This document shows, piece by piece, positions 4,784 to 63,714 of a stretch of 64,000 bases of DNA. Source of the stretch: Flavobacteriales bacterium (GTDB lineage Bacteria; Bacteroidota; Bacteroidia; Flavobacteriales_F; PHOS-HE28). Made by a program: the position numbers and the translations under genes. Location of the stretch: positions 2,869,284 to 2,933,283 of the forward strand of contig CP065018.1 in assembly GCA_016700415.1 (NCBI GenBank), given 5' to 3'. A model generated the notes under the pieces. It saw nothing but the letters and a program-made list of their open reading frames with translations, did not search any database and was not told the DNA's origin. How positions within the stretch are numbered: position 1 is the stretch's first letter; each line of letters begins with the position of its first letter.

Positions 4784-6051
4784 TGCGTATCCCTGTTTTT
4801 ATCCTGCCATTGCTCCTGGCCGGCAAGCTCGCCGCGCAGGACATGCCTTCCGTGAAGGATCAGGCGAAGCAATATGTGGACACCCTTGCGGGTCCCGCCA
4901 TGTACGGTCGCGGCTACGTGCAAGGCGGCGACAGCCTCGCGGCGGAATGGATCGCCAAGCAGTTCGACCGGATCGGCCTTGAAAAGCTGAACGACAAGCA
5001 TTTCGAGCCGTTCACATTCCCGGTGAACAGCTTTCCGGACCCCATCGCACTGAGCGTTGACGGCACCTTGCTACAGCCCGGTATCGATTACCTCCTGGAT
5101 CCCGCCTCCGGCCCGGCGGACGGGAAGTACGACCTAATACATCTCGGCGTGAACGACCTGGCAACTCCGGAGCGCAAGGCCGTGACCATGGGCGTGGTGA
5201 GCGGCAATGCCGCCGTGCTGCATTTTCCGCACACCACCGATGCGGACAGCTTGGCGATGTACAACGATTGGGAGAACGAACTGGCGCGGGCGGTCCCCGT
5301 GATCCGCATCGGCGGCGAGAAGCTGACGTGGAGCGTGGCCGGAACCCAGACGCGCAACGCGGTGATCGAAATGCGCGCTGGCGTGATGCCGGATTCCGCC
5401 CGCACCGCAACGATCCATGTGCAGAACCGCTTCATTCCAAGGCACACCGCGCGCAATGTGCTGGGCGTGGCCAAGGCCAAGGGCGGCAGCAAGGACTGGC
5501 TACTGGTAACGGCCCACTACGACCACCTCGGCATGATGGGGCAGGCCCTGTTCCCCGGCGCGAACGACAATGCCAGCGGCGTCAGCATGCTGCTCAGCCT
5601 CGCGGAATGGTTTAAGAAACACCCCCCGAAGACGAACATCCTCTTCGTGGCCTTCGCCGCTGAGGAGGCCGGCTTGAAAGGCAGCCAATGGTTCGTGGCG
5701 GATCGCCCGATCGACCTTTCGCGCATCAAGATGCTCGTCAATCTGGACCTCAACGGCACAGGCGATGAAGGCATCACCGTGGTGAACGCCACGGCACAGC
5801 AGGGGATTTACGACCAGCTCGTCGCGATCAACGAAAAGACCCAGGACCTGCCGCAAGTGAAGTCGCGCGGACCGGCGTGCAACAGCGACCACTGCCCCTT
5901 TGTGCAGAAGGGCGTACCGGCCATCTTCATCTACACCATGGGCGGCGTCAGCTATTACCACGACGTGATGGACCGGCCGGAAACATTGCCGCTCACGAAG
6001 TTCGACGGGCTCTACCGCACCCTGGCCACGTTGCTCAGTACCTTGAAATGA
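4783..6051 (+). CDS. M28-family zinc aminopeptidase, secreted
   Basis: Signal peptide at the N-terminus. Metal-ligand motifs HYDHLG and NDNASGV, and a conserved EE pair (AEEAGL), typical of the M28 family. Confidence 0.85.
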   Translation: MRIPVFILPLLLAGKLAAQDMPSVKDQAKQYVDTLAGPAMYGRGYVQGGDSLAAEWIAKQFDRIGLEKLNDKHFEPFTFPVNSFPDPIALSVDGTLLQPGIDYLLDPASGPADGKYDLIHLGVNDLATPERKAVTMGVVSGNAAVLHFPHTTDADSLAMYNDWENELARAVPVIRIGGEKLTWSVAGTQTRNAVIEMRAGVMPDSARTATIHVQNRFIPRHTARNVLGVAKAKGGSKDWLLVTAHYDHLGMMGQALFPGANDNASGVSMLLSLAEWFKKHPPKTNILFVAFAAEEAGLKGSQWFVADRPIDLSRIKMLVNLDLNGTGDEGITVVNATAQQGIYDQLVAINEKTQDLPQVKSRGPACNSDHCPFVQKGVPAIFIYTMGGVSYYHDVMDRPETLPLTKFDGLYRTLATLLSTLK

Positions 6052-6734
6052 GCGTGGAGCGCGCGGGCGGAAGGCTCTTCTTAGTGCCCACGCCCATCGG
6101 CAATCTGGAGGACATCACCCTGCGCGCGAAGCGCATCCTGGAGGAAGCCGACGCGGTGATCGCCGAGGACACCCGCGTGAGCGGGAGGCTGCTGCAGCAC
6201 TACGGCATCAGCCGCCCCTTTATCGCTTTCCATGCGCACAACGAGCACAAGGTGACGGACCGCTTGGTGGAGCGCTTGGTGGCCGGTGAGCGCTTTGCGC
6301 TGGTCACCGATGCGGGAACGCCCGCGATCAGCGACCCCGGATTTTTGCTGGTGCGCGCTGCCGTAAAGCAGGGCGTCGTCGTGGAATGCCTTCCCGGCGC
6401 CACGGCCTTCGTTCCCGCCTTGGTGAACAGCGGCCTGCCCTGCGACCGGTTCACCTTCGAAGGCTTTCTACCGGTGAAGAAGGGCCGCCGGACGCGTATC
6501 ACCGAGCTGGTGAACGAGCCGCGCACGATGGTCTTCTACGAAAGCCCGCACCGCATCGTCCGCACCCTGCACGAATTGGCGGAAGCCTTTGGGGCGGAAC
6601 GCCAAGCCAGCATTTCACGCGAGATCACCAAGCTGCACGAGGAGACCTTGCGCGGCACGCTGCCGGAGCTGGCCGCGTACTTTGAAGTGCATCCGCCGAA
6701 GGGGGAATTCGTGTTGTGCGTGGCGGGGGCGTGA
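6048..6734 (+). CDS. rsmI: 16S rRNA (cytidine1402-2'-O)-methyltransferase
   Basis: LFLVPTPIGNLEDITLRA...ADAVIAEDTR is the tetrapyrrole-methylase-fold RsmI signature. The start makes an ATGA overlap with the upstream stop at 6048-6051. Confidence 0.9.
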   Translation: MSVERAGGRLFLVPTPIGNLEDITLRAKRILEEADAVIAEDTRVSGRLLQHYGISRPFIAFHAHNEHKVTDRLVERLVAGERFALVTDAGTPAISDPGFLLVRAAVKQGVVVECLPGATAFVPALVNSGLPCDRFTFEGFLPVKKGRRTRITELVNEPRTMVFYESPHRIVRTLHELAEAFGAERQASISREITKLHEETLRGTLPELAAYFEVHPPKGEFVLCVAGA

Positions 6735-6870: not shown

Positions 6871-9800
6871 TCACGGCAACTGCTCCACACGCACGTTCGT
6901 GGTGATCACACCGCCAATGTTCTGAAGAATGGGGTCCCGGTCGTTCCCGGTGCCGGTATATTTCGCAGTGCCGTCCATGTTCACGTCGGATGATAAGTAG
7001 CCGTTCACCGTATTGGTGGTGACCCCCCCGACGACTTGCAGAATAGGGTCGCGATCGTTGTTGTTGCCGGTGTATTTCAATCCGGAAGGAGCTGCGACAT
7101 CCTTGGAGACATCACCGGCCCAAAGCACATGCGTGCTACCGATGGTCTTCGTGCCGCCCGTACCATAGGTCGCCGCACTGGTGAAGTCCACGGCGCTCAC
7201 GACCGTGGACAGCATCAGGGGGGCAGCGGTCATGGTTCCAAGGTGGTTACGGTGCCGAACTACGATGTGGTAGCTGCCTGCCGCGACGGGGAATGAGATC
7301 GGCGACACGCCATCCACCGCGACCACATCCCCATTCCGCTGAAGCAACGCCGCGCGGGTAGCCACGATGTTCGCTGGCGCACTTGCCTCCCTCAATTCGA
7401 CGATCACCCAATCCACGATGGCTGGGTTGCCTTCTTTCCGGAGCACGCCATCATGGATGCGCTCGCCGCCACCATCCGGTCTGTTGAAGCCCGATCCGGT
7501 GTACGGTTCATCTGCCGGTAACAGACCCGCAACACGCAGGTCGTCGCGCATCAACAGGGTCCCGGTAACATAGGGTCCTTCCAGCATCAGCTTTACGGCG
7601 AGCCGCACGCCGCTGTTCGTTATGGACACATTGTCCAAGTACAGGCGATCGCCATAGTCGTTCACTCCGGTGAACCGGATCACGACATTCATGCCATCGT
7701 ATGCGCTCAGGTCGATATCATGCAATTGCCATTGTTCCGCTGCAGTAGGGGACCAAGGGCTGGTACCCGTGGTCGTAGTACCCAGTGCAAGTGCCTCGGC
7801 GTAGTACAGCTGCGCCCAATTCGCTCCGCAATCCGTACTGATCTCAACACGCAGACCATCGGTATAATTGGCGCCATAAGGTTTGTAGGCGTGATGGAAT
7901 TTCAACCGTGTGCCTGCACTGCCCGCCAACGAGATCAATGGCGATACCAGGTGGTCCAACTGGCCCGGTGCGTTGTAGTAATAATAATCCATCCTCCAAG
8001 CTCGTGTGGGCAGACCATCTGCCCCGGAGGTGAGCGCTTGGTTGCTCCACGTGTCCAGATCATCCGGGTTCTTCAAGCTCCATCCGGCAGGGGCGATCAG
8101 CAGATCTTCGGCATCGGCGGTCACCGGTGTTGCGGCCGTACTGTTCAAGTACGTGATCTGATCACTGACCGTTCTGGTATGCGTTCCGTTCACATCGGTA
8201 ACTGTTAACGATACACCATAGGTGCCGGGTGCGCCGTATGTCACCACCGGATCGCGCACTGTACTGGTAGCCGGGTTTCCGCCCACGAAAGTCCATGCCC
8301 AAGTGGCACCGTTGCCGCTGAGCGCGCTGTTGTCGTAGAATTTCACGGTGGGTCCGAGGCACGTGACGGTCCTCCTGTCCACGGCGAAATTGGCGACCGG
8401 CGGAGCTGGTGCTTCCATTGCACTTTCCCATACGCTCCGGTCCGTTCCATTGCGGATCAAGCCATCGCGGTAGTTGATCAAAAGGCGTGTGCTGAAGATC
8501 TTGGCAGGCAGTCCAGCATTCCACAGCGACCATGCCGGAGCCGCATCGTTGCGCGTGTACACGGCACGACGCGTTCCGATGTAGACCACGCCATTGCTAC
8601 CATACTGATGCGTGATGTTCGTTGGCCATTCACCGTTCAACCCGGCATCCGTGATGTTGGTCCACGCACTACCTCCTGATGTGCTCTTGTACACCACGTA
8701 TCCGTTCAAGTTCGGACTATTCCCGTACTGCGAGGTGCGCACCAACCAGATCGTTTGTGGGTCCACAGCGCTGACAGCGATGTCGTACGGCACCCATGTG
8801 TTCCCGTTCAGAGCTGCACTTGTCGGGGTAATGTCCGTCCAGCTGCCGCCGGCATCCGTGCTGCGATACACGCGTTTCACGCCCCACCAGTCCACATACG
8901 TACATGCGTAGATCGTATTCGCATCGCTGAACGCGACTTCGATGTTCGTGACCTTCTCACCGAAATCATGCACTTGTGAAAAGCTCAGCCCATTGTCATT
9001 CGTGAGCCAAAGCGCGGTCCCGTTCCCCACGTATGCCGCATCGACCAAGTTCGGATGCCATGCCACTTCGCTGCTTTCGCCCACGATATAGCTCGCGTTC
9101 GGTTGTTTGCTCCACGTGCCGTTGGTGTTGTTCACATTGCGGTCTCCGCTCAACACTTTGTAGCCGTAGTCGCTCAATGCGCGTCGGTCATATTGGGGGT
9201 GAACGAAGCCTCGATATCCATCACCACCGTCAGTGCTGACCCAGCCGTTGATGTACGTATTGTTGTCCTTGAGCAAGGTGCCGTTGTGGTACGTGCCGCC
9301 GAGCATCACGTTGCTACCGGTCCATCCGCCTGCACCGAATCCCCAGAAGTCCGTTCCACTGATCCCGAACATGCGCCGTTCGAAGGTTGCGCCGCCGTCG
9401 CTGCTGTAGAACACGCCACCGTCGTTCGCAGCCCATACCTCGTTGGCCCCGTAGTAGCGGAAGTCGTGGATGTCCGCATGCAGGTAGTCCACTTTGTTGC
9501 TATGGCTCCATTTCGCGGGGCAGGTGAAGCTTGCACCACCATCGGTGCTCACCCAACGTTGCACACCGCACACGTTCACCTTGTCCGCGTTGGAGGGATC
9601 AACATCGAAGGCCAGATCGTAGTAGTACTGTCCGCCATCATCCTGTCCGCCATCGTCCCAACCCATCAAGTTGAAATTGGTGGGAGAGGGGACACCCGCC
9701 GGTTGCGCACCGCAACACTGAAAGGTCCAATTCGCACCTTGGTCAACGCTTTTGTAGACACCGTACAAGCCGCTTCCACCATTGGCATCGCCGGTACACA

Positions 9801-10812
9801 GTGCATAGACCATGTTGGGGGCGGCAGCGCTCACGGCGATCTCCGTCCGCTTTTGCTCGTCGGGCGAAACGGGTAACGGCCAACCGGTCCCGACCTGCGC
9901 AAATGTTGAACCATTGTTCGTGCTGCGCCAGAATTCGGTACGGTTGCCGATCTGCTTAATGGCGTACACCGTATTCGGATCGCTCGGTTTAAATTCCAAT
10001 TCCTGCCAGGCGCCGGCCTGCACCTGGGTGAACGTTGATCCGGCGTTCGAGCTGCGCCACAATCCTAGATCGCTCAACACATACAGCACTTGCGCGTTCG
10101 TCGGGTGGACCTGGATCTCCTTGAAAGCATGGGCCAAGCCTTGAAAGGTGGCATCCCCGATGGTATTCCATGTGGAACCGCCATCAAGGGTCTTCCAAAG
10201 ATCACCTCCTGCCCCGAAGTACACGATGTTGGCGTCCGTCCGGTCGATCTCCAGCGCATAAACTTCACCGACCATCATGCTTTTCGTAAGGTTCGTCCAG
10301 TTCAAACCTTTGTCCACGCTCTTCCAAAGCCCACTGTTCGCCGTGCCGGCATAGATCACATCCGGGCTGCTCGCACTCTGCTTCACGGTGTATACATGGG
10401 CCGCACCGCACGCATAGCTCTTCGCTACAGCGCCATGGTCCCAATCGAAAGGGCCGATGCAACCCCAATTTGCCGCACGTGAGCCGACAAGTTCCTCCGA
10501 TGCACGGAGGTAGACGTTCAATGTGGTCGCATAGTCCGCCCGTTGTTGCGGATCGAGGGGAATTTGATCATGGCCCAATTCACGCTTCCAGCGCTTATAG
10601 TATTGGGTATGGCCGTTCTTCACGAACGGGTGCGAGGCGTAGTAGGCAACGTACGCCTCCTCCACCGCTCCGGGGTCCGGGTCAGGTGCGTACATGAGCC
10701 TCACCCATTCCGGTAGCGATGGCCCATCCGCATTGTAACGAAGCGCCTCCAATTGTGCGCGGGACACGAGGAATAGGCAGATGAAGACGAGGAACAGTTG
10801 TGATCTCTTCAT
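6871..10812 (-). CDS. large secreted BNR/Asp-box (sortilin/VPS10-like) repeat protein with a PKD domain and a duplicated C-terminal KYTGxxNDRDPILQxxGG motif
   Basis: Signal peptide MKRSQLFLVFICLFLVSRAQ. There are more than 8 SxDxGxTW/F Asp-box repeats (STDGGASF, STDAGGSW, STSGGSAW, STNNGSTF, ...). A PKD-like segment (VTYGAPGTYGVSLTVTDVNGT) is present. The C-terminus does not match the canonical T9SS type-A CTD. Confidence 0.8.
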   Translation of the reverse strand: MKRSQLFLVFICLFLVSRAQLEALRYNADGPSLPEWVRLMYAPDPDPGAVEEAYVAYYASHPFVKNGHTQYYKRWKRELGHDQIPLDPQQRADYATTLNVYLRASEELVGSRAANWGCIGPFDWDHGAVAKSYACGAAHVYTVKQSASSPDVIYAGTANSGLWKSVDKGLNWTNLTKSMMVGEVYALEIDRTDANIVYFGAGGDLWKTLDGGSTWNTIGDATFQGLAHAFKEIQVHPTNAQVLYVLSDLGLWRSSNAGSTFTQVQAGAWQELEFKPSDPNTVYAIKQIGNRTEFWRSTNNGSTFAQVGTGWPLPVSPDEQKRTEIAVSAAAPNMVYALCTGDANGGSGLYGVYKSVDQGANWTFQCCGAQPAGVPSPTNFNLMGWDDGGQDDGGQYYYDLAFDVDPSNADKVNVCGVQRWVSTDGGASFTCPAKWSHSNKVDYLHADIHDFRYYGANEVWAANDGGVFYSSDGGATFERRMFGISGTDFWGFGAGGWTGSNVMLGGTYHNGTLLKDNNTYINGWVSTDGGDGYRGFVHPQYDRRALSDYGYKVLSGDRNVNNTNGTWSKQPNASYIVGESSEVAWHPNLVDAAYVGNGTALWLTNDNGLSFSQVHDFGEKVTNIEVAFSDANTIYACTYVDWWGVKRVYRSTDAGGSWTDITPTSAALNGNTWVPYDIAVSAVDPQTIWLVRTSQYGNSPNLNGYVVYKSTSGGSAWTNITDAGLNGEWPTNITHQYGSNGVVYIGTRRAVYTRNDAAPAWSLWNAGLPAKIFSTRLLINYRDGLIRNGTDRSVWESAMEAPAPPVANFAVDRRTVTCLGPTVKFYDNSALSGNGATWAWTFVGGNPATSTVRDPVVTYGAPGTYGVSLTVTDVNGTHTRTVSDQITYLNSTAATPVTADAEDLLIAPAGWSLKNPDDLDTWSNQALTSGADGLPTRAWRMDYYYYNAPGQLDHLVSPLISLAGSAGTRLKFHHAYKPYGANYTDGLRVEISTDCGANWAQLYYAEALALGTTTTGTSPWSPTAAEQWQLHDIDLSAYDGMNVVIRFTGVNDYGDRLYLDNVSITNSGVRLAVKLMLEGPYVTGTLLMRDDLRVAGLLPADEPYTGSGFNRPDGGGERIHDGVLRKEGNPAIVDWVIVELREASAPANIVATRAALLQRNGDVVAVDGVSPISFPVAAGSYHIVVRHRNHLGTMTAAPLMLSTVVSAVDFTSAATYGTGGTKTIGSTHVLWAGDVSKDVAAPSGLKYTGNNNDRDPILQVVGGVTTNTVNGYLSSDVNMDGTAKYTGTGNDRDPILQNIGGVITTNVRVEQLP

Positions 10813-49346: not shown

Positions 49347-49357
49347 GCTCAGAAGCT

Positions 49358-49377
49358 GGCCAAGACCTTGGCCTTTT
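49358..49377 (+). terminator. intrinsic terminator after dnaG
   Basis: GGCCAAG-ACC-TTGGCC stem-loop followed by TTTT, 12 nt after the dnaG stop. Confidence 0.6.
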
Positions 49378-49403
49378 AGCGGTGGAAGATGGCAAAGTTC
49401 GGA

Positions 49404-49540
49404 GACCCCGAAGGGGTCGCAGAAATTAGGATCGTGCGCGCAAGTCTCGACCCTGCAAGGGTCGCAGCCAGCCATAGTCCCGTGTGATAATGTATTTCTT
49501 TAGTGCAAAATGGTCCATGGGATCAGACCCCGAAGGGTTC
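49404..49540. repeat. REP cluster (three palindromic units) on the 3' side of the RAYT gene
   Basis: gaccccgaaggggtc (49404-49418), gaccctgcaagggtc (49449-49463) and gaccccgaagggttc (49526-49540). Each is a GACCC(C/T)-N3-GGG(G/T)TC hairpin, and the first two are followed by GCAG. Confidence 0.7.
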
Positions 49541-49624
49541 AAAGAGATCAGCTGATCATGTGTGCCGTTGCCTACCCTTCAACGGGTTGCAGGCCAACCT
49601 GCGGATTCGAATATATGTTCCGCC

Positions 49625-50068
49625 TCATACAAAATACTTGAGGTCGTATTCAACACCATGGTCCGCCAACAGGCTGAGCAATTCTTCCTTGTATGTCCGT
49701 GTGCCGTGGTGTTCCTCTTGCCGATCGATGTAGCTCCTTATCATCTCCCGCTCCCGATGGCTTACGGTAAAGGCGGCGTAGCCTTCCTGCCAGTGGAAAT
49801 TCCGCAGCCCGACCTCGTCGCGCAACCAGACGGTGGATGCCTTTTTCAACTCTCTCACGATATCTGAAAGGACGTGGGTGGCTTTAAGCCCAAAGAGCAG
49901 ATGCACGTGGTCGTTCCAGCCACCGGTGTTCTGTGGGAATCCGCCAAGACCTTTTATCGTTCCGCCCATGTAGCTGTGCAATTGATCTCGCCATTTCCGG
50001 TCAAGACAGGGCACTCGGTTTTTAGTGGAAAAGACCACATGGTAATGCAGGCTGAGGTAGGTGGACAT
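49625..50068 (-). CDS. rayT: REP-associated tyrosine transposase (RAYT; IS200/IS605-like Y1 HuH)
   Basis: 147 aa. YHVVFSTKNR N-terminus, the HuH motif in NDHVHLLF, and the catalytic Tyr region EGYAAFTV. Flanked by REP palindromes. Confidence 0.85.
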   Translation of the reverse strand: MSTYLSLHYHVVFSTKNRVPCLDRKWRDQLHSYMGGTIKGLGGFPQNTGGWNDHVHLLFGLKATHVLSDIVRELKKASTVWLRDEVGLRNFHWQEGYAAFTVSHREREMIRSYIDRQEEHHGTRTYKEELLSLLADHGVEYDLKYFV

Positions 50069-50079
50069 GATGCCGCTGT

Positions 50080-50151
50080 GACCCCGTTGGGGTCAGGTAA
50101 GGTAGAAGGTGCGTGGGGGATGAACTAATTTCTGTGACCCCTTCCGGGGTC
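50080..50151. repeat. REP cluster (two palindromic units) on the 5' side of the RAYT gene, inverted relative to the other cluster
   Basis: ctgtGACCCCgttGGGGTCag (50080-50094) and ctgtGACCCCttccGGGGTCgg (50136-50151). GTGACCCC heads; the orientation is opposite to the units at 49404-49540. Confidence 0.7.
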
Positions 50152-50188
50152 GGTGGTATTATTTGCTGTGCCCGTGTTCAACAGATGC

Positions 50189-50323
50189 TCATGCCGCCAC
50201 CCGCTTCAGTGCCTTCTCCAACGCGTACTTGTCGAACTCAATGGCCCCTACCACGTCCCATCCGGCATTTTTTAATCCGAGGGTGAGACCACCGGCACCG
50301 GAAAACAGGTCTATGGCTTTCAT
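50189..50323 (-). pseudogene. N-terminal remnant (44 codons) of a cytosine-5 DNA methyltransferase
   Basis: MKAIDLFSGAGGLTLGLKNAGWDVVGAIEFDKYALE... is C5-MTase motif I (FxGxGG) and the start of motif II. It then terminates, and the REP unit at 50136-50151 follows 38 nt after the stop. Confidence 0.6.
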
Positions 50324-58339: not shown

Positions 58340-59107
58340 ATGAAGTTTCCAACAATTCAAGAAGTGACCGAGCGGGAAGCGGCACGAGCGCTGGGTTTGG
58401 ACTGCACCCTAACCCCGGCCCTCAGCACCTTCTACAACTACGCCGCGCTGCTCGGCCTAAAGCGCAAGCGACTTAAAGGGCTGGTAAAGAGGCAGGGTAT
58501 CCGGGCCACGACCCCTAATGAATACCTGCATGTGGATACCACCTTCTGGGGTTTGGACCATGACCTGAAGGCCGCGATCGTGCTGGTGAGTGATAACTTC
58601 TCAAAAGCCATTTTGGGGTGGAACATCGCACTCGGCAAGCACGCCGTCAATGTGGTGGAAGCGCTGCGCCAGGCCATCACTACCATTCACCAATACCATC
58701 CTGGGCAGGTGAACGCCAACCTTGTCGCCGACGCAGGTGGTGAAAACCATGCGGACTGTGTTGAGGCACTCCTGGATGCTACCAAGGATCCGCTCATCAC
58801 CAAGTTGATCGCGCAGCGGGACATTCGCTTTTCCAACTCCCCCATCGAGGCCATCAACAAGATCCTCAAGCAATATCTGCGGCATTACAACCCGCGCACA
58901 CTCCCCGCCTTAAAGAAGGTGCTCATCCAGTTCGTGCAGGATTATAATTCCGTAAGGCCGCATGGCACGCTCAAAGGCCTGACCCCGATGGAGGCGTACG
59001 TACACCCGGAGCTGAAACCCAATTTCCGAAAACCGGTCCAAGAGGTGAGGGGGATCCGATTGGAAGAGAATAGGAAAGGGAATTGTGGCGGTTGCATGAA
59101 CCAATAG
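58340..59107 (+). CDS. IS3-family OrfB-like DDE transposase (rve integrase core); lone, probably a remnant
   Basis: The tract ...TPNEYLHVDTTF...SDNFSKAILGW...SNSPIEAINKILKQ...YNSVRPHGTLKGLTPMEAY is the rve fold. There is no OrfA/HTH part upstream because purD starts 50 bp away. The upstream 700 nt of the ORF are antisense to purD. Confidence 0.72.
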   Translation: MKFPTIQEVTEREAARALGLDCTLTPALSTFYNYAALLGLKRKRLKGLVKRQGIRATTPNEYLHVDTTFWGLDHDLKAAIVLVSDNFSKAILGWNIALGKHAVNVVEALRQAITTIHQYHPGQVNANLVADAGGENHADCVEALLDATKDPLITKLIAQRDIRFSNSPIEAINKILKQYLRHYNPRTLPALKKVLIQFVQDYNSVRPHGTLKGLTPMEAYVHPELKPNFRKPVQEVRGIRLEENRKGNCGGCMNQ

Positions 59108-59859: not shown

Positions 59860-59952
59860 CTTCGAAGCGTTTCCCTTAGATATTGGGCCTCGGATACTTG
59901 GGCGGCTCGTAAAGCTGATTGTTGCGGGCTAAGAGAAATAGTGTTTACAGGC

Positions 59953-60026
59953 CCCACGCTCCCGCAAGTCTTCCCGGCCAGCAAAAACTTGCGTTCCAAC
60001 ATGGATAGCCGGGGCGACTTGTGGGT
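59953..60026 (+). repeat. hairpin repeat copy 1 (left end of the IS200-like element)
   Basis: cccacgctcccgcaagtcttcccgg...ccggggcgacttgtgggt. The arms are mutually complementary (17-nt stem, 3 mismatches). About 88% identical to 63641-63714. Confidence 0.65.
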
Positions 60027-60085: not shown

Positions 60086-60634
60086 TTAATACGGCTCCAA
60101 TTTAAGCAGACCCGGCTTTCCTGCAATGGCCGGTGCTGAGCTGTAAACGTAATCCTCCGCCTGTTCCACATAACCCTCCACCGCCGGGTTATCGTGCAAG
60201 TAATTCAACTTCTGCGTGATCACCTCCCCAGAGATCAACTGTACGGGTCGATCGTCTTGTCGCCAAAACTGGTAATGCATGTTGTTCGAGTTGGCCGCGC
60301 CGGCCTTGGCAAAGATCGGCAGCATCCATTCCTTGCGGCTCTCTTGGTTGTTATCTGCAATGGCCTTTAAGATCTGCGAGGATGTGAATTTCTTGAGGTC
60401 CCGCAGGATGTCCGGCAAGGCATGGCCTTCTGCCGCCGCCGCGATCAAATGCACATGGTTGCTCATGATCACCCAGGCGTACAACAGCAGGCCTTTCTTC
60501 TCCTGGCAATGTCTCAGGCTGTCCACAATGATGTCCTTGTATTCGCGCCGAGTGAACACGTCCACCCACTCGACGGTGGCGAAGGAAATGAAGTAGGTTC
60601 CTTCGGGATCGTGGAACTTGTAGCTACGGCTCAT
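60086..60634 (-). CDS. tnpA: IS200/IS605-like Y1 (HuH) transposase, Bacteroidetes 'TnpA_REP' type
   Basis: 183 aa. MSRSYKFHDPEGTYFISFATVEWVDVFTRREY..., the HuH motif in SNHVHLI, and the catalytic Tyr in YVYSS. Confidence 0.85.
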   Translation of the reverse strand: MSRSYKFHDPEGTYFISFATVEWVDVFTRREYKDIIVDSLRHCQEKKGLLLYAWVIMSNHVHLIAAAAEGHALPDILRDLKKFTSSQILKAIADNNQESRKEWMLPIFAKAGAANSNNMHYQFWRQDDRPVQLISGEVITQKLNYLHDNPAVEGYVEQAEDYVYSSAPAIAGKPGLLKLEPY

Positions 60635-60713
60635 GCAGCTCCGAAGGTAGTTCCGTGCGGCAGTCTGAAGACTGCCGGAAGCTTCCGTGCCTTTATCGGC
60701 TTCTGAGCGTATG

Positions 60714-60808
60714 CCCACAAGTCGCCCCGGCCTGTATGGTCAGGAGCCATGCCTGCGGCAGACAGGCTCACTTTACCGTTGGGCCGGGAAGACTTGCGGG
60801 AGCTTTGG
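60714..60808 (-). repeat. hairpin repeat copy 2 (inverted; right end of the IS200-like element)
   Basis: gcccacaagtcgccccgg ... ccgggaagacttgcgggagc is the reverse complement of the copy-1 arms, with a longer internal loop. Confidence 0.6.
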
Positions 60809-61135
60809 GGTTCGTTGAACGAATTCGTAGAAAGCGTTGCCTTGGCGACCAACAACATATACACAACCGGCATCAACAGCAGTTCGGATGTCGACTATGA
60901 CCCCTCTGCGGAGCATGTATTGCCGTTGACCGCTGCCGGCGATAATGACATCCTCCTTCTGCATTACCCACTTTCAGGCAAGGTGATCGGCGATGAGCGA
61001 CCACCTGTCCGGAAGTGGTGGCCCATACCGAAGCCCCACATTCCCTATTACATCGGTGCGGCGATCATAGGGATCATGGTCATTGTCTTAGTGCGCGTGA
61101 AGCGCCGTCGCGGAGGAGAGGGGAACGGTGCCTAG
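60749..61135 (+). CDS. hypothetical single-pass membrane protein (speculative; its start lies inside repeat copy 2)
   Basis: C-terminal TM helix plus a basic tail (IPYYIGAAIIGIMVIVLVRVKRRRGG). The only in-frame ATG is inside the inverted repeat, so the ORF may be an artefact. Confidence 0.2.
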   Translation: MPAADRLTLPLGREDLRELWGSLNEFVESVALATNNIYTTGINSSSDVDYDPSAEHVLPLTAAGDNDILLLHYPLSGKVIGDERPPVRKWWPIPKPHIPYYIGAAIIGIMVIVLVRVKRRRGGEGNGA

Positions 61136-63599: not shown

Positions 63600-63640
63600 G
63601 AACTAACAAAACAAGTGAATTATCACGATGTACACAAGGT

Positions 63641-63714
63641 CCCACGCTCCCGCAACTCTTCCCGGTCAGCAAGATCTTGCGTTCCGGCATGGTCAGCCGG
63701 GGCGACTTGTGGGT
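63641..63714 (+). repeat. hairpin repeat copy 3 (solo, MITE/REPIN-like)
   Basis: 74 bp, ~88% identical to 59953-60026 with the same arm sequences. There is no adjacent transposase. Confidence 0.65.

Follow-up and report, generated by a model that had tools for sequence, protein, structure and literature searches.

The window examined here is a 64,000-nucleotide stretch (64 kb) of the genome of a Flavobacteriales bacterium (GenBank assembly GCA_016700415.1, contig CP065018.1). Within it, close behind dnaG, lies a gene for a 147-residue Y1 HuH tyrosine transposase that is flanked on both sides by short palindromes, and the locus raises the question of what this enzyme and these palindromes are to one another. 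An earlier note on the same DNA had proposed a REP-associated tyrosine transposase (RAYT) accompanied by five repetitive extragenic palindromic (REP) sequences, three on one side and two in opposite orientation on the other, that the enzyme mobilises. We find that the locus is probably a cassette of the REPtron or TIRtron kind built on a Y1 HuH enzyme from the IS200 side of the family (subclass 1.2), in which the gene lies between inverted copies of its own hairpin. All coordinates without a locus name refer to the window.

The enzyme and its flanking hairpins

The gene occupies positions 49625..50068 on the minus strand. Its product matches the Pfam family Y1_Tnp (PF01797) with 83 bits (gathering threshold 23; E 2.4e-23), which bears out the earlier identification of a Y1 HuH transposase with the motifs quoted for it, and it carries no extra domain besides Y1. 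The protein scores 67.8 bits against the NCBIfam IS200/IS605 equivalog NF033573 (cut-off 55), which marks it as an IS200-type TnpA, and gives no match at E <= 0.01 to the NCBIfam RAYT model REP_Tyr_transpos. The IS200 model matches 32 of 32 homologues (best E 5.8e-20), and the matches of the RAYT model to the same 32 are weak (best E 2.9e-5). A comparison of the family profile with solved structures recovered the ISDra2-type TnpA (54.7 bits) and the IS608 TnpA (46 bits); no chain of E. coli TnpA-REP was matched even at E <= 10.

Throughout the 32 homologues, which reach down to 33% identity (alignment A2), the residues D53-H54-x-H56, W93-Q94 and Y113-I-x-x-Q117-x-x-H120-H121 are all invariant. 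In the window protein these correspond to the HuH motif (H54/H56, within DHVH), the WQ motif (W93/Q94) and the tyrosine motif YIDRQEEHH, and the C-terminal tail contributes the conserved residues E129, G138, E140, D142 and Y145. When the protein is aligned with ISDra2 TnpA, so that the HuH motif and YIESQ are in register, the predicted catalytic tyrosine is Y113 of YIDRQ and not the tyrosine of EGYAAF, the motif that the earlier note had listed.

Subclass 1.2 has been described, in the only systematic survey of Y1 enzymes, as having a median length of 148 amino acids, the motifs DH[IV]H, WQ and YIKNQKEHH, an average of 1.7 copies per genome and a distribution in Cyanobacteria and Bacteroidetes, whereas canonical RAYTs (class 2) carry Y---NP (Quentin 2018, PMC6006769). 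The window protein resembles subclass 1.2 in its length of 147 amino acids, in its DH[IV]H, WQ and Y---Q--HH motifs, in its conserved C-terminal extension, in its low copy number and in its host, a member of the Bacteroidetes; the Y---NP motif is not present in it, its place being taken by YIDRQ. Given these published motifs, the matches to ISDra2 and IS608 and the missing match to TnpA-REP, we file the protein as a predicted member of TnpA-Y1 subclass 1.2 and not as a canonical RAYT, and the earlier designation is withdrawn.

In a representative library, 94 clusters match the protein at E <= 1e-30, a number that rises to 3,012 at E <= 1e-10. Comparison of the gene with six homologues gave dN/dS values of 0.05-0.17, over saturated synonymous divergence; the gene is maintained under purifying selection, and both the HuH motif and the tyrosine are retained. 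Several proteins of the same family (P0241-P0245, P0248, P0250 and others) are ~270-300 amino acids long and contain two tandem Y1 domains, and would equal single-chain versions of the normal homodimer.

The palindromes were examined with a covariance model (R1) built from an alignment (A1) of 128 units of other genomes, with which the window was scanned with filters off. The model returned exactly four significant units, two on each side of the gene and on opposite strands (26-33.5 bits, E 6e-7 to 6e-5). The outermost unit on the left, U1 (A-type; 49401..49431, plus strand), reads GACCCC-GAA-GGGGTC + GCAG + AAATTAG (33.5 bits, E 5.7e-7; -5.7 kcal/mol) and is followed by U2 (B-type; 49446..49476, plus strand), which reads CGACCCT-GCA-AGGGTCG + CAG and has no TAG tail (26.1 bits, E 5.6e-5; -7.1 kcal/mol, z -3.3). 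On the right, inverted relative to U1 and U2, are U5 (B-type; 50067..50097, minus strand; TGACCCC-AAC-GGGGTCA + CAG; 28.4 bits, E 1.4e-5; -6.4 kcal/mol) and the outermost unit U6 (A-type; 50123..50154, minus strand; GACCCC-GGAA-GGGGTC + ACAG + AAATTAG; 27.9 bits, E 1.9e-5; -6.5 kcal/mol). As single-stranded DNA the four significant units fold with -5.7 to -7.1 kcal/mol and z scores of -2.2 to -3.3.

Two further sequences lie between U2 and the gene, on the plus strand. The first, U3 (49523..49553; GACCCC-GAA-GGGTTC AAAG), is 81% identical to U1 in register and is decayed, with a score of 9 bits (E 2.4) and a folding z of -1.1, no better than that of shuffled sequences. The other, U4 (49570..49600; TACCC-TTCAAC-GGGTT GCAG), was matched by regular expression and has a GGGTTGCAG tail, has no model match and a z of -1.15, and is at most a possible decayed unit that is not significant. 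The opposite orientation of the palindromes on the two sides is thus as the earlier note had it, and its count of three and two becomes two and two, the third on the left being decayed. The 64-kb window has four matches to the pattern GACCCY-N3-5-RGGGTC, each beside the Y1 open reading frame (ORF), where 0.06 matches are expected from shuffles, and R1 found no unit elsewhere in the window (best other match 10.5 bits, E 0.9).

The GACCC-type core of the palindrome consensus proposed earlier stands, and the unit can now be described as a 7-bp stem (Y-GACCCC / GGGGTC-R) followed by an unpaired CAG, with GAA as the typical loop, often with N4-TAG after the CAG, and with AAATTAG in the outermost units. 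The two stem columns that are free of the selection pattern pair as C:G in 78 cases, U:A in 17 and U:G in 6, and none of 500 shuffles attains the observed pairing or covariation. The foot of the hairpin is CTG(Y), or RCAG on the opposite strand; the GT[AG]G tag of REP sequences is absent from the unit, and the name REP does not apply to it. Left units read hairpin-then-GCAG on the plus strand and right units read CTGT-then-hairpin, so that the tails point at the gene from both sides. The resulting hairpin-bounded cassette (49406..50148) ends in a 24-nt terminal inverted repeat (TIR) whose arms, CCCCGAAGGGGTCGCAGAAATTAG (49406-49429) and CTAATTTCTGTGACCCCTTCCGGG (50125-50148), are 92% complementary and hold the two outermost hairpins with their AAATTAG tails. 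An Rfam scan of the hairpin region matched no family, and a terminator scan called none of the units, which have no T tract; a known RNA family or terminator was therefore rejected for them.

Homologous loci and gene-less units in other genomes

Homologues were picked by protein alone, beginning with P0009, P0006 and P0025 (73-79% identity) and continuing with P0048, P0057 and P0055 (60-66%); their loci (L006, L007, L011, L140, L141 and L144) have unrelated contexts. Model-significant units surround each of the six genes in the geometry (+..+) gene (-..-), with 2 to ~20 units at each locus and a period of ~50 bp. The family unit at these loci is YGACCCC-GAA-GGGGTCR-CAG, and the hairpin of P0057 has diverged to CATCCC-GGA-GGGATG. 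At L140, 3 kb from the first gene, there is a second subclass 1.2 paralogue (6991-7443; YIADQKEHH), 34% identical to the window protein, that is flanked in the same inverted geometry by a different hairpin, GCCCC-AAC-GGGGC. A diverged paralogue with a hairpin of its own indicates that enzyme and palindrome change together, and pairwise change of this kind has been described for RAYT/REP pairs. The confinement of the units to the gene flanks, their presence at all six homologues, the covarying stem and the paralogue-specific hairpin lead us to conclude, on these comparative grounds, that the palindromes belong to the Y1 gene as its predicted cognate sites.

Several other observations were made at these loci. 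At L140 an extra palindrome, CCCAGGGC-N4-GCCCTGGG, lies on both sides of the second paralogue, and at L141 a called 150-residue 'gene' upstream of the Y1 gene (9544-9996) runs through the units and four to five ~50-bp tandem repeats and is probably not a real gene. Locus L007 (9678-9984) and locus L009 (upstream of 864) have an identical protein and different arrays (7 units versus 4), which reflects either a true gain or loss of units or a collapse of the ~50-bp repeats during assembly. The cassettes of L006 and L007 lie between direct repeats of host flank, of 188 bp at 84% (9808-9992 / 10578-10764, taking in three units and the 3' end of hsdM) and of 49 bp at 98% (9612-9660 / 10578-10626), respectively, which suggests a recombinational and not a transpositional insertion at these two loci. 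Such repeats were considered as a general signature of insertion and rejected, as they were seen at L006 and L007 only, and neither at the window nor elsewhere.

Three of the seven protein-picked gene loci are situated inside type I restriction-modification (R-M) operons (L006 7766-19218, L007 7262-16754 and L141 5895-14587), where the Y1 gene is found between or after hsdM/hsdS and before hsdR, amid toxin-antitoxin and Fic genes. Linkage to type I R-M genes was rejected as a general property of the repeat, because hsdM/S/R genes are present in 2 of the 120 unit-selected loci among the matches listed, and it remains an unexplained enrichment among gene-bearing loci only.

Those unit-selected loci come from a 19-mer of the unit, GACCCCGAAGGGGTCRCAG, which was found in at least 120 stretches from at least 83 species-representative genomes of ~10 phyla; by our own estimate, for uniform base composition, chance would give ~10 matches in the whole collection. 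Counts of the 19-mer per genome are lower bounds. Among the matches listed, to which the gene, junction and doublet counts that follow also refer, it occurs in Flavobacteriales, Saprospiraceae and other Bacteroidota, in Planctomycetota, Verrucomicrobiota and Hydrogenedentota, and further in Armatimonadota, Acidobacteriota, Actinomycetota, Chloroflexota and Gammaproteobacteria. A Y1 gene is present within the 8-kb block in 17 of the 120 stretches, and 103 are gene-less. The gene-less clusters of Flavobacteriales have the form '- - + +' with a ~50-bp period (24 '-+' junctions versus 2 '+-'); the '+-' junction is the position of the gene, and the '-+' doublets are ~42 nt apart. The usual form in Planctomycetota is a tight '+-' doublet, 28-31 nt from start to start, that makes one long palindrome.

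At least five genomes hold a gene locus plus separate gene-less loci, and one Saprospiraceae metagenome-assembled genome (MAG) has at least seven stretches. The units tend to avoid ORFs: crude ORF calls span 85% of the sequence, 38% of the units overlap one, and in several of these cases the call is known to be false. A metagenome scan for the variant found in the window (hairpin + RCAGAAATTAG) gave 48 stretches, 46 of them gene-less, and two samples contained five loci each on contigs of 40-138 kb, or about one cluster per 60-85 kb. At the level of the family, the unit is dispersed without the gene in other genomes, in doublets and clusters that resemble REP doublets forming hairpins (REPINs) and bacterial interspersed mosaic elements (BIMEs). 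Inverted doublets of the kind that the earlier note proposed to test for are found, without the gene, in other genomes. A literature search on the repeat string found it in none of the papers searched.

Tail variants specific to a genome were considered as proof of propagation within that genome and set aside, the outcome being mixed: the tails are consistent within JADJKO01 and within JAVFAQ01, and JADKJM01 is to the contrary. The element at locus L088, in JADKJM01, is nearly the same as that at L086 of another MAG. A Bacteroidia MAG contains, at L033 (3388-4900), a ~213-bp tandem repeat in which each copy has two GACCC-type units and a hairpin CAATCCC-GAA-GGGATTG.

Some of the gene-less clusters have a carrier. 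At metagenome loci the four-hairpin cluster was found to be the interior of a ~240-290 bp element with 15-18-bp TIRs starting CAGGGC, and the 15-bp TIR CAGGGCTATCGCCTC is accompanied by 10-bp target duplications (CTTCCTGTCG at L188, GATCCTCACA at L146 and CCTTTGACCC at L166). The ISAs1 family is characterised by ends that start with CAGGG and by a 10-bp duplication, and these copies are therefore ISAs1-type miniature inverted-repeat transposable elements (MITEs) that carry Y1-type hairpins (L146, L152, L166, L174, L181, L188 and L190; also L157, L160, L172, L180 and L189). About 10 clusters lie in such MITEs, and ~140 of the 166 evaluable clusters show neither an outer TIR nor a target duplication, so that MITE carriage was rejected as the general route of dispersal; it is one route, not the rule. 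In a second MITE-like carrier, seen at L017 (~100-420) and L101 (~5930-6340), the TIRs (..GTGTCCGGGGAAAA) are 20-21 bp long and the flank is directly repeated over 6 bp. There is no ISAs1-type MITE in the 64-kb window, where four near-matches to CAGGGCNATCGC lie within genes and are due to chance.

The inserted block and its neighbourhood

In three sister species, whose DnaG is 84-88% identical, the order polyprenyl synthase - MORN - dnaG - czcD - CotH is conserved. Their dnaG-czcD spacers measure 18, 19 or 177 nt and contain no Y1 gene, methylase stub, units or terminator-like hairpin. These short spacers indicate that ~1.09 kb between the dnaG stop codon and the conserved CTACCTTCG just upstream of czcD (49347 to ~50440) was inserted in the lineage of the window, and the insertion immediately after dnaG that had been proposed from the window itself is thereby confirmed, dnaG abutting czcD in the sister species. 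Besides the hairpin-bounded cassette, the block contains a terminator-like hairpin and a C5 methyltransferase stub with its upstream DNA. The terminator-like hairpin (49356..49379, plus strand; GGCCAAG-ACC-TTGGCC + TTTT) is unrelated to the units and, with only 4 T, was missed by the consensus terminator scan. The stub (50189..50323, minus strand) encodes the N-terminal 44 amino acids of a C5 cytosine DNA methyltransferase, including motif I (DLFSGAGG), matches Pfam PF00145 with 34.4 bits over profile positions 1-36 of 324, and is called in every assembly of the species that was read.

The exact protein is present in 156 blocks of the assembly collection. The dnaG-side context is shared by 22 of the 22 contigs read, and wherever the czcD protein next to it was found (22 of 22 contigs), the Y1 gene and the methylase stub are present as well; in all of these contigs (22 + 22) the Y1 gene occupies one locus, and the window has no other copy of subclass 1.2. 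Between 49341 and 50200 (860 bp), nine assemblies share the same sequence, from which a tenth departs by one single-nucleotide polymorphism. The cassette in this genome thus appears to be a single fixed copy that was imported with a methylase fragment and is apparently inactive. Where the earlier note had the palindromes mobilised by their cognate enzyme, the six homologues and the paralogue-specific hairpin uphold the cognate relationship, and mobilisation has left no sign here, at a locus that is near-identical in 10 assemblies.

A second Y1 gene is found 10 kb from the cassette (60086..60718, minus strand). It is of the canonical RAYT type, with the motifs NHVH, FWRQ and YLHDNP, and matches NCBIfam REP_Tyr_transpos with 90 bits (cut-off 80). 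On each side it is flanked by an inverted doublet of CCCRCAAGTCKYCCCGGCC (59952-60025 and 60714-60809), and a third doublet, at ~63640-63713 and 2.9 kb off, has no gene and shares ~85% identity with the left one over a length that includes the spacer; the doublet pattern has 6 matches in the window versus 0.16 expected. This RAYT and its REPIN-like doublets fit the earlier picture of REPINs and their RAYT better than the cassette does, and their presence in the same window weakens the premise that a REP/RAYT system would be unusual in such a host. Between the two Y1 genes, a 255-residue ORF (58340-59107, plus strand) with weak rve_3/rve_2 integrase-core matches is a DDE transposase or a remnant of one.

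What kind of system the cassette represents

Like the REPtron (Nunvar 2010; Bertels & Rainey 2011; Ton-Hoang 2012), the cassette pairs a Y1 gene present in one copy with short inverted palindromes on both sides; a palindrome family specific to each paralogue and gene-less inverted doublets and clusters in the extragenic DNA of related genomes are further features in common. The cassette is unlike the REPtron in that its enzyme stands on the IS200 side (with Y---Q--HH, not Y---NP, and with no match to E. coli TnpA-REP), in that the foot of its hairpin is CTG(Y) and not GT[AG]G, in that few loci are seen per genome where a REPtron has hundreds, and in that no dispersed copy was seen in the 64 kb of this genome. 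In TIRtrons, a Y1 gene is flanked by long TIRs that share GGGGWSAS and belong to moderately abundant families occurring as dimers or clusters (Di Nocera 2013, PMC3733652). The gene described here is similarly bracketed by its 24-nt TIR, and GGGGTCAC in U5 and U6 fits GGGGWSAS, a match of only 8 nt; GGGGTCGC in U1 and U2 is off at one position. TIRYT proteins are mostly ~238-residue members of subclass 2.1 with a C-terminal helix-turn-helix and Y---NP (Quentin 2018, PMC6006769), unlike the 147-residue protein with Y---Q--HH and no extra domain.

For subclass 1.2 itself, the survey table has the entry 'REP: no' (Quentin 2018, PMC6006769). In contrast to that published description, every member examined here has flanking hairpin arrays, and members that have the same hairpin are also found in Planctomycetota. 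The behaviour of the cassette matches that of IS200 Group 3, termed 'RAYT-like', which, in the passages of Bertels 2017 (PMC5581495) that describe it, clusters with IS200, has no duplicates, is not found on plasmids and has flanking 16-mers at ~21 per replicon; the likeness is one of described behaviour, those passages naming neither a repeat sequence nor a geometry.

An autonomous IS200/IS605-family insertion sequence of the ordinary kind, transposing as a unit with the hairpins as its left and right ends, would account for the IS200 equivalog match above cut-off, for ISDra2 and IS608 TnpA being the nearest solved structures (with aligned HuH and YxxxQ residues), for homologues at differing loci in differing species and for the element being missing from the matching site in the sister species. 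We nonetheless consider it unlikely. IS200/IS605 ends are asymmetric hairpins on the same strand without TIRs (Quentin 2018, PMC6006769), and the IS608 and ISDra2 elements are of that form, usually multi-copy and often with tnpB; here the ends form symmetric inverted repeats, each side having 2-10 units in tandem, tnpB is missing, and in all the contigs read the gene has a single locus per genome. The near-identity of the region across assemblies, the boundaries of the inserted block, which do not match the hairpins, and purifying selection over saturated synonymous divergence also speak against an autonomous element, as does the published behaviour of subclass 1.2, which is low-copy with 36% identity between copies of the same genome (Quentin 2018, PMC6006769).

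The single-copy, fixed and selectively maintained state of the gene would equally suit a domesticated Y1 enzyme with a host or defence-island role (for example one linked to R-M), in which case the hairpins would be regulatory or recombination sites, and the gene-less copies would owe their spread to something else, for instance recombination or ISAs1-type MITEs. The three protein-picked loci in type I R-M operons, the methylase stub next to the window copy, the ~10 clusters in MITEs with 10-bp duplications and the host-flank repeats around the L006 and L007 cassettes all agree with such a role. Set against it are the invariant HuH and tyrosine residues, which suggest that nuclease and ligase chemistry is kept, the scarcity of type I R-M genes among unit-selected loci, the large majority of clusters without an outer TIR or target duplication, and the joint shift of hairpin and enzyme specificity between paralogues, as expected of enzyme-substrate pairs; we judge domestication improbable. 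An explanation of the palindromes as common host features (terminators or mRNA stabilisers, for instance) that lie near the gene by chance is very improbable indeed: they are short, G+C-rich, intergenic hairpins directly after dnaG, yet they lack a T tract, a terminator call and an Rfam family, flank the gene in seven unrelated genomic contexts, and are found neither elsewhere in the 64 kb nor in the sister-species spacers.

Several points also weigh against the REPtron- or TIRtron-like cassette that we favour. The recurrence of the palindromes that the earlier note had expected was not found within the 64 kb, where no gene-less unit was seen in the ~63 kb outside the cassette and its flanks, although at about one cluster per 60-85 kb a count of zero in such a stretch is uninformative either way. 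In the 113 kb examined around the six homologues, every unit seen lies within ~1 kb of the gene. The inserted block exceeds the cassette and its boundaries are off the hairpins, so that its arrival was no clean hairpin-to-hairpin transposition, or the junctions were later erased by rearrangement. In JADKJM01 (L066, L025 and L088) the gene-less tail is CAGCWTGTAG, and CAGAMATTAG is found at the known Y1 gene, which suggests a second, unseen paralogue or inherited relics. The ISAs1-type MITE copies are most simply accounted for by movement through a DDE transposase. The invariance of the unit core is partly by construction, because the units of alignment A1 were picked by regular expression, and any mechanism for subclass 1.2 enzymes is drawn wholly by analogy.

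By that analogy, the hairpins of the cassette would be recognised by the product of its own gene. As for the TnpA proteins of IS608 and ISDra2, which serve as the template, and for E. coli TnpA-REP, a dimer would bind the hairpins on single-stranded DNA, with the CTG(Y) foot perhaps serving as a guide or tag. Cleavage nearby would proceed through Y113 with formation of a 5'-phosphotyrosine link, and, at replication forks, could let hairpin-bounded DNA be excised and inserted again.

A broader reading, which we put forward tentatively and hold to be possible and not probable, is that outside Proteobacteria a second partnership of the REPIN-RAYT type evolved independently, between subclass 1.2 enzymes and CTG(Y)-footed GACCCC hairpins, in which a single-copy, vertically kept enzyme maintains a small population of gene-less doublets and clusters, and the 19-mer site has been kept over ~10 phyla while the protein diverged to ~57% identity. 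Such a system could be a missing intermediate between IS200 and the RAYTs.

The element of the window is itself an ordinary, apparently inactive member of its family. Contrary to the survey entry for subclass 1.2, the genes of this subclass that we examined are consistently bracketed by cognate hairpin arrays, and the pattern spans Bacteroidota, Planctomycetota, Verrucomicrobiota and other phyla. If this pattern holds, it would offer a second tractable system in which to ask how an IS200-like transposase turns into a single-copy resident with satellite repeats, and biochemical work on it could use a DNA site that is very short and well defined; it would also mean that genes annotated as 'IS200/IS605 family transposase' in these phyla are often not insertion sequences.

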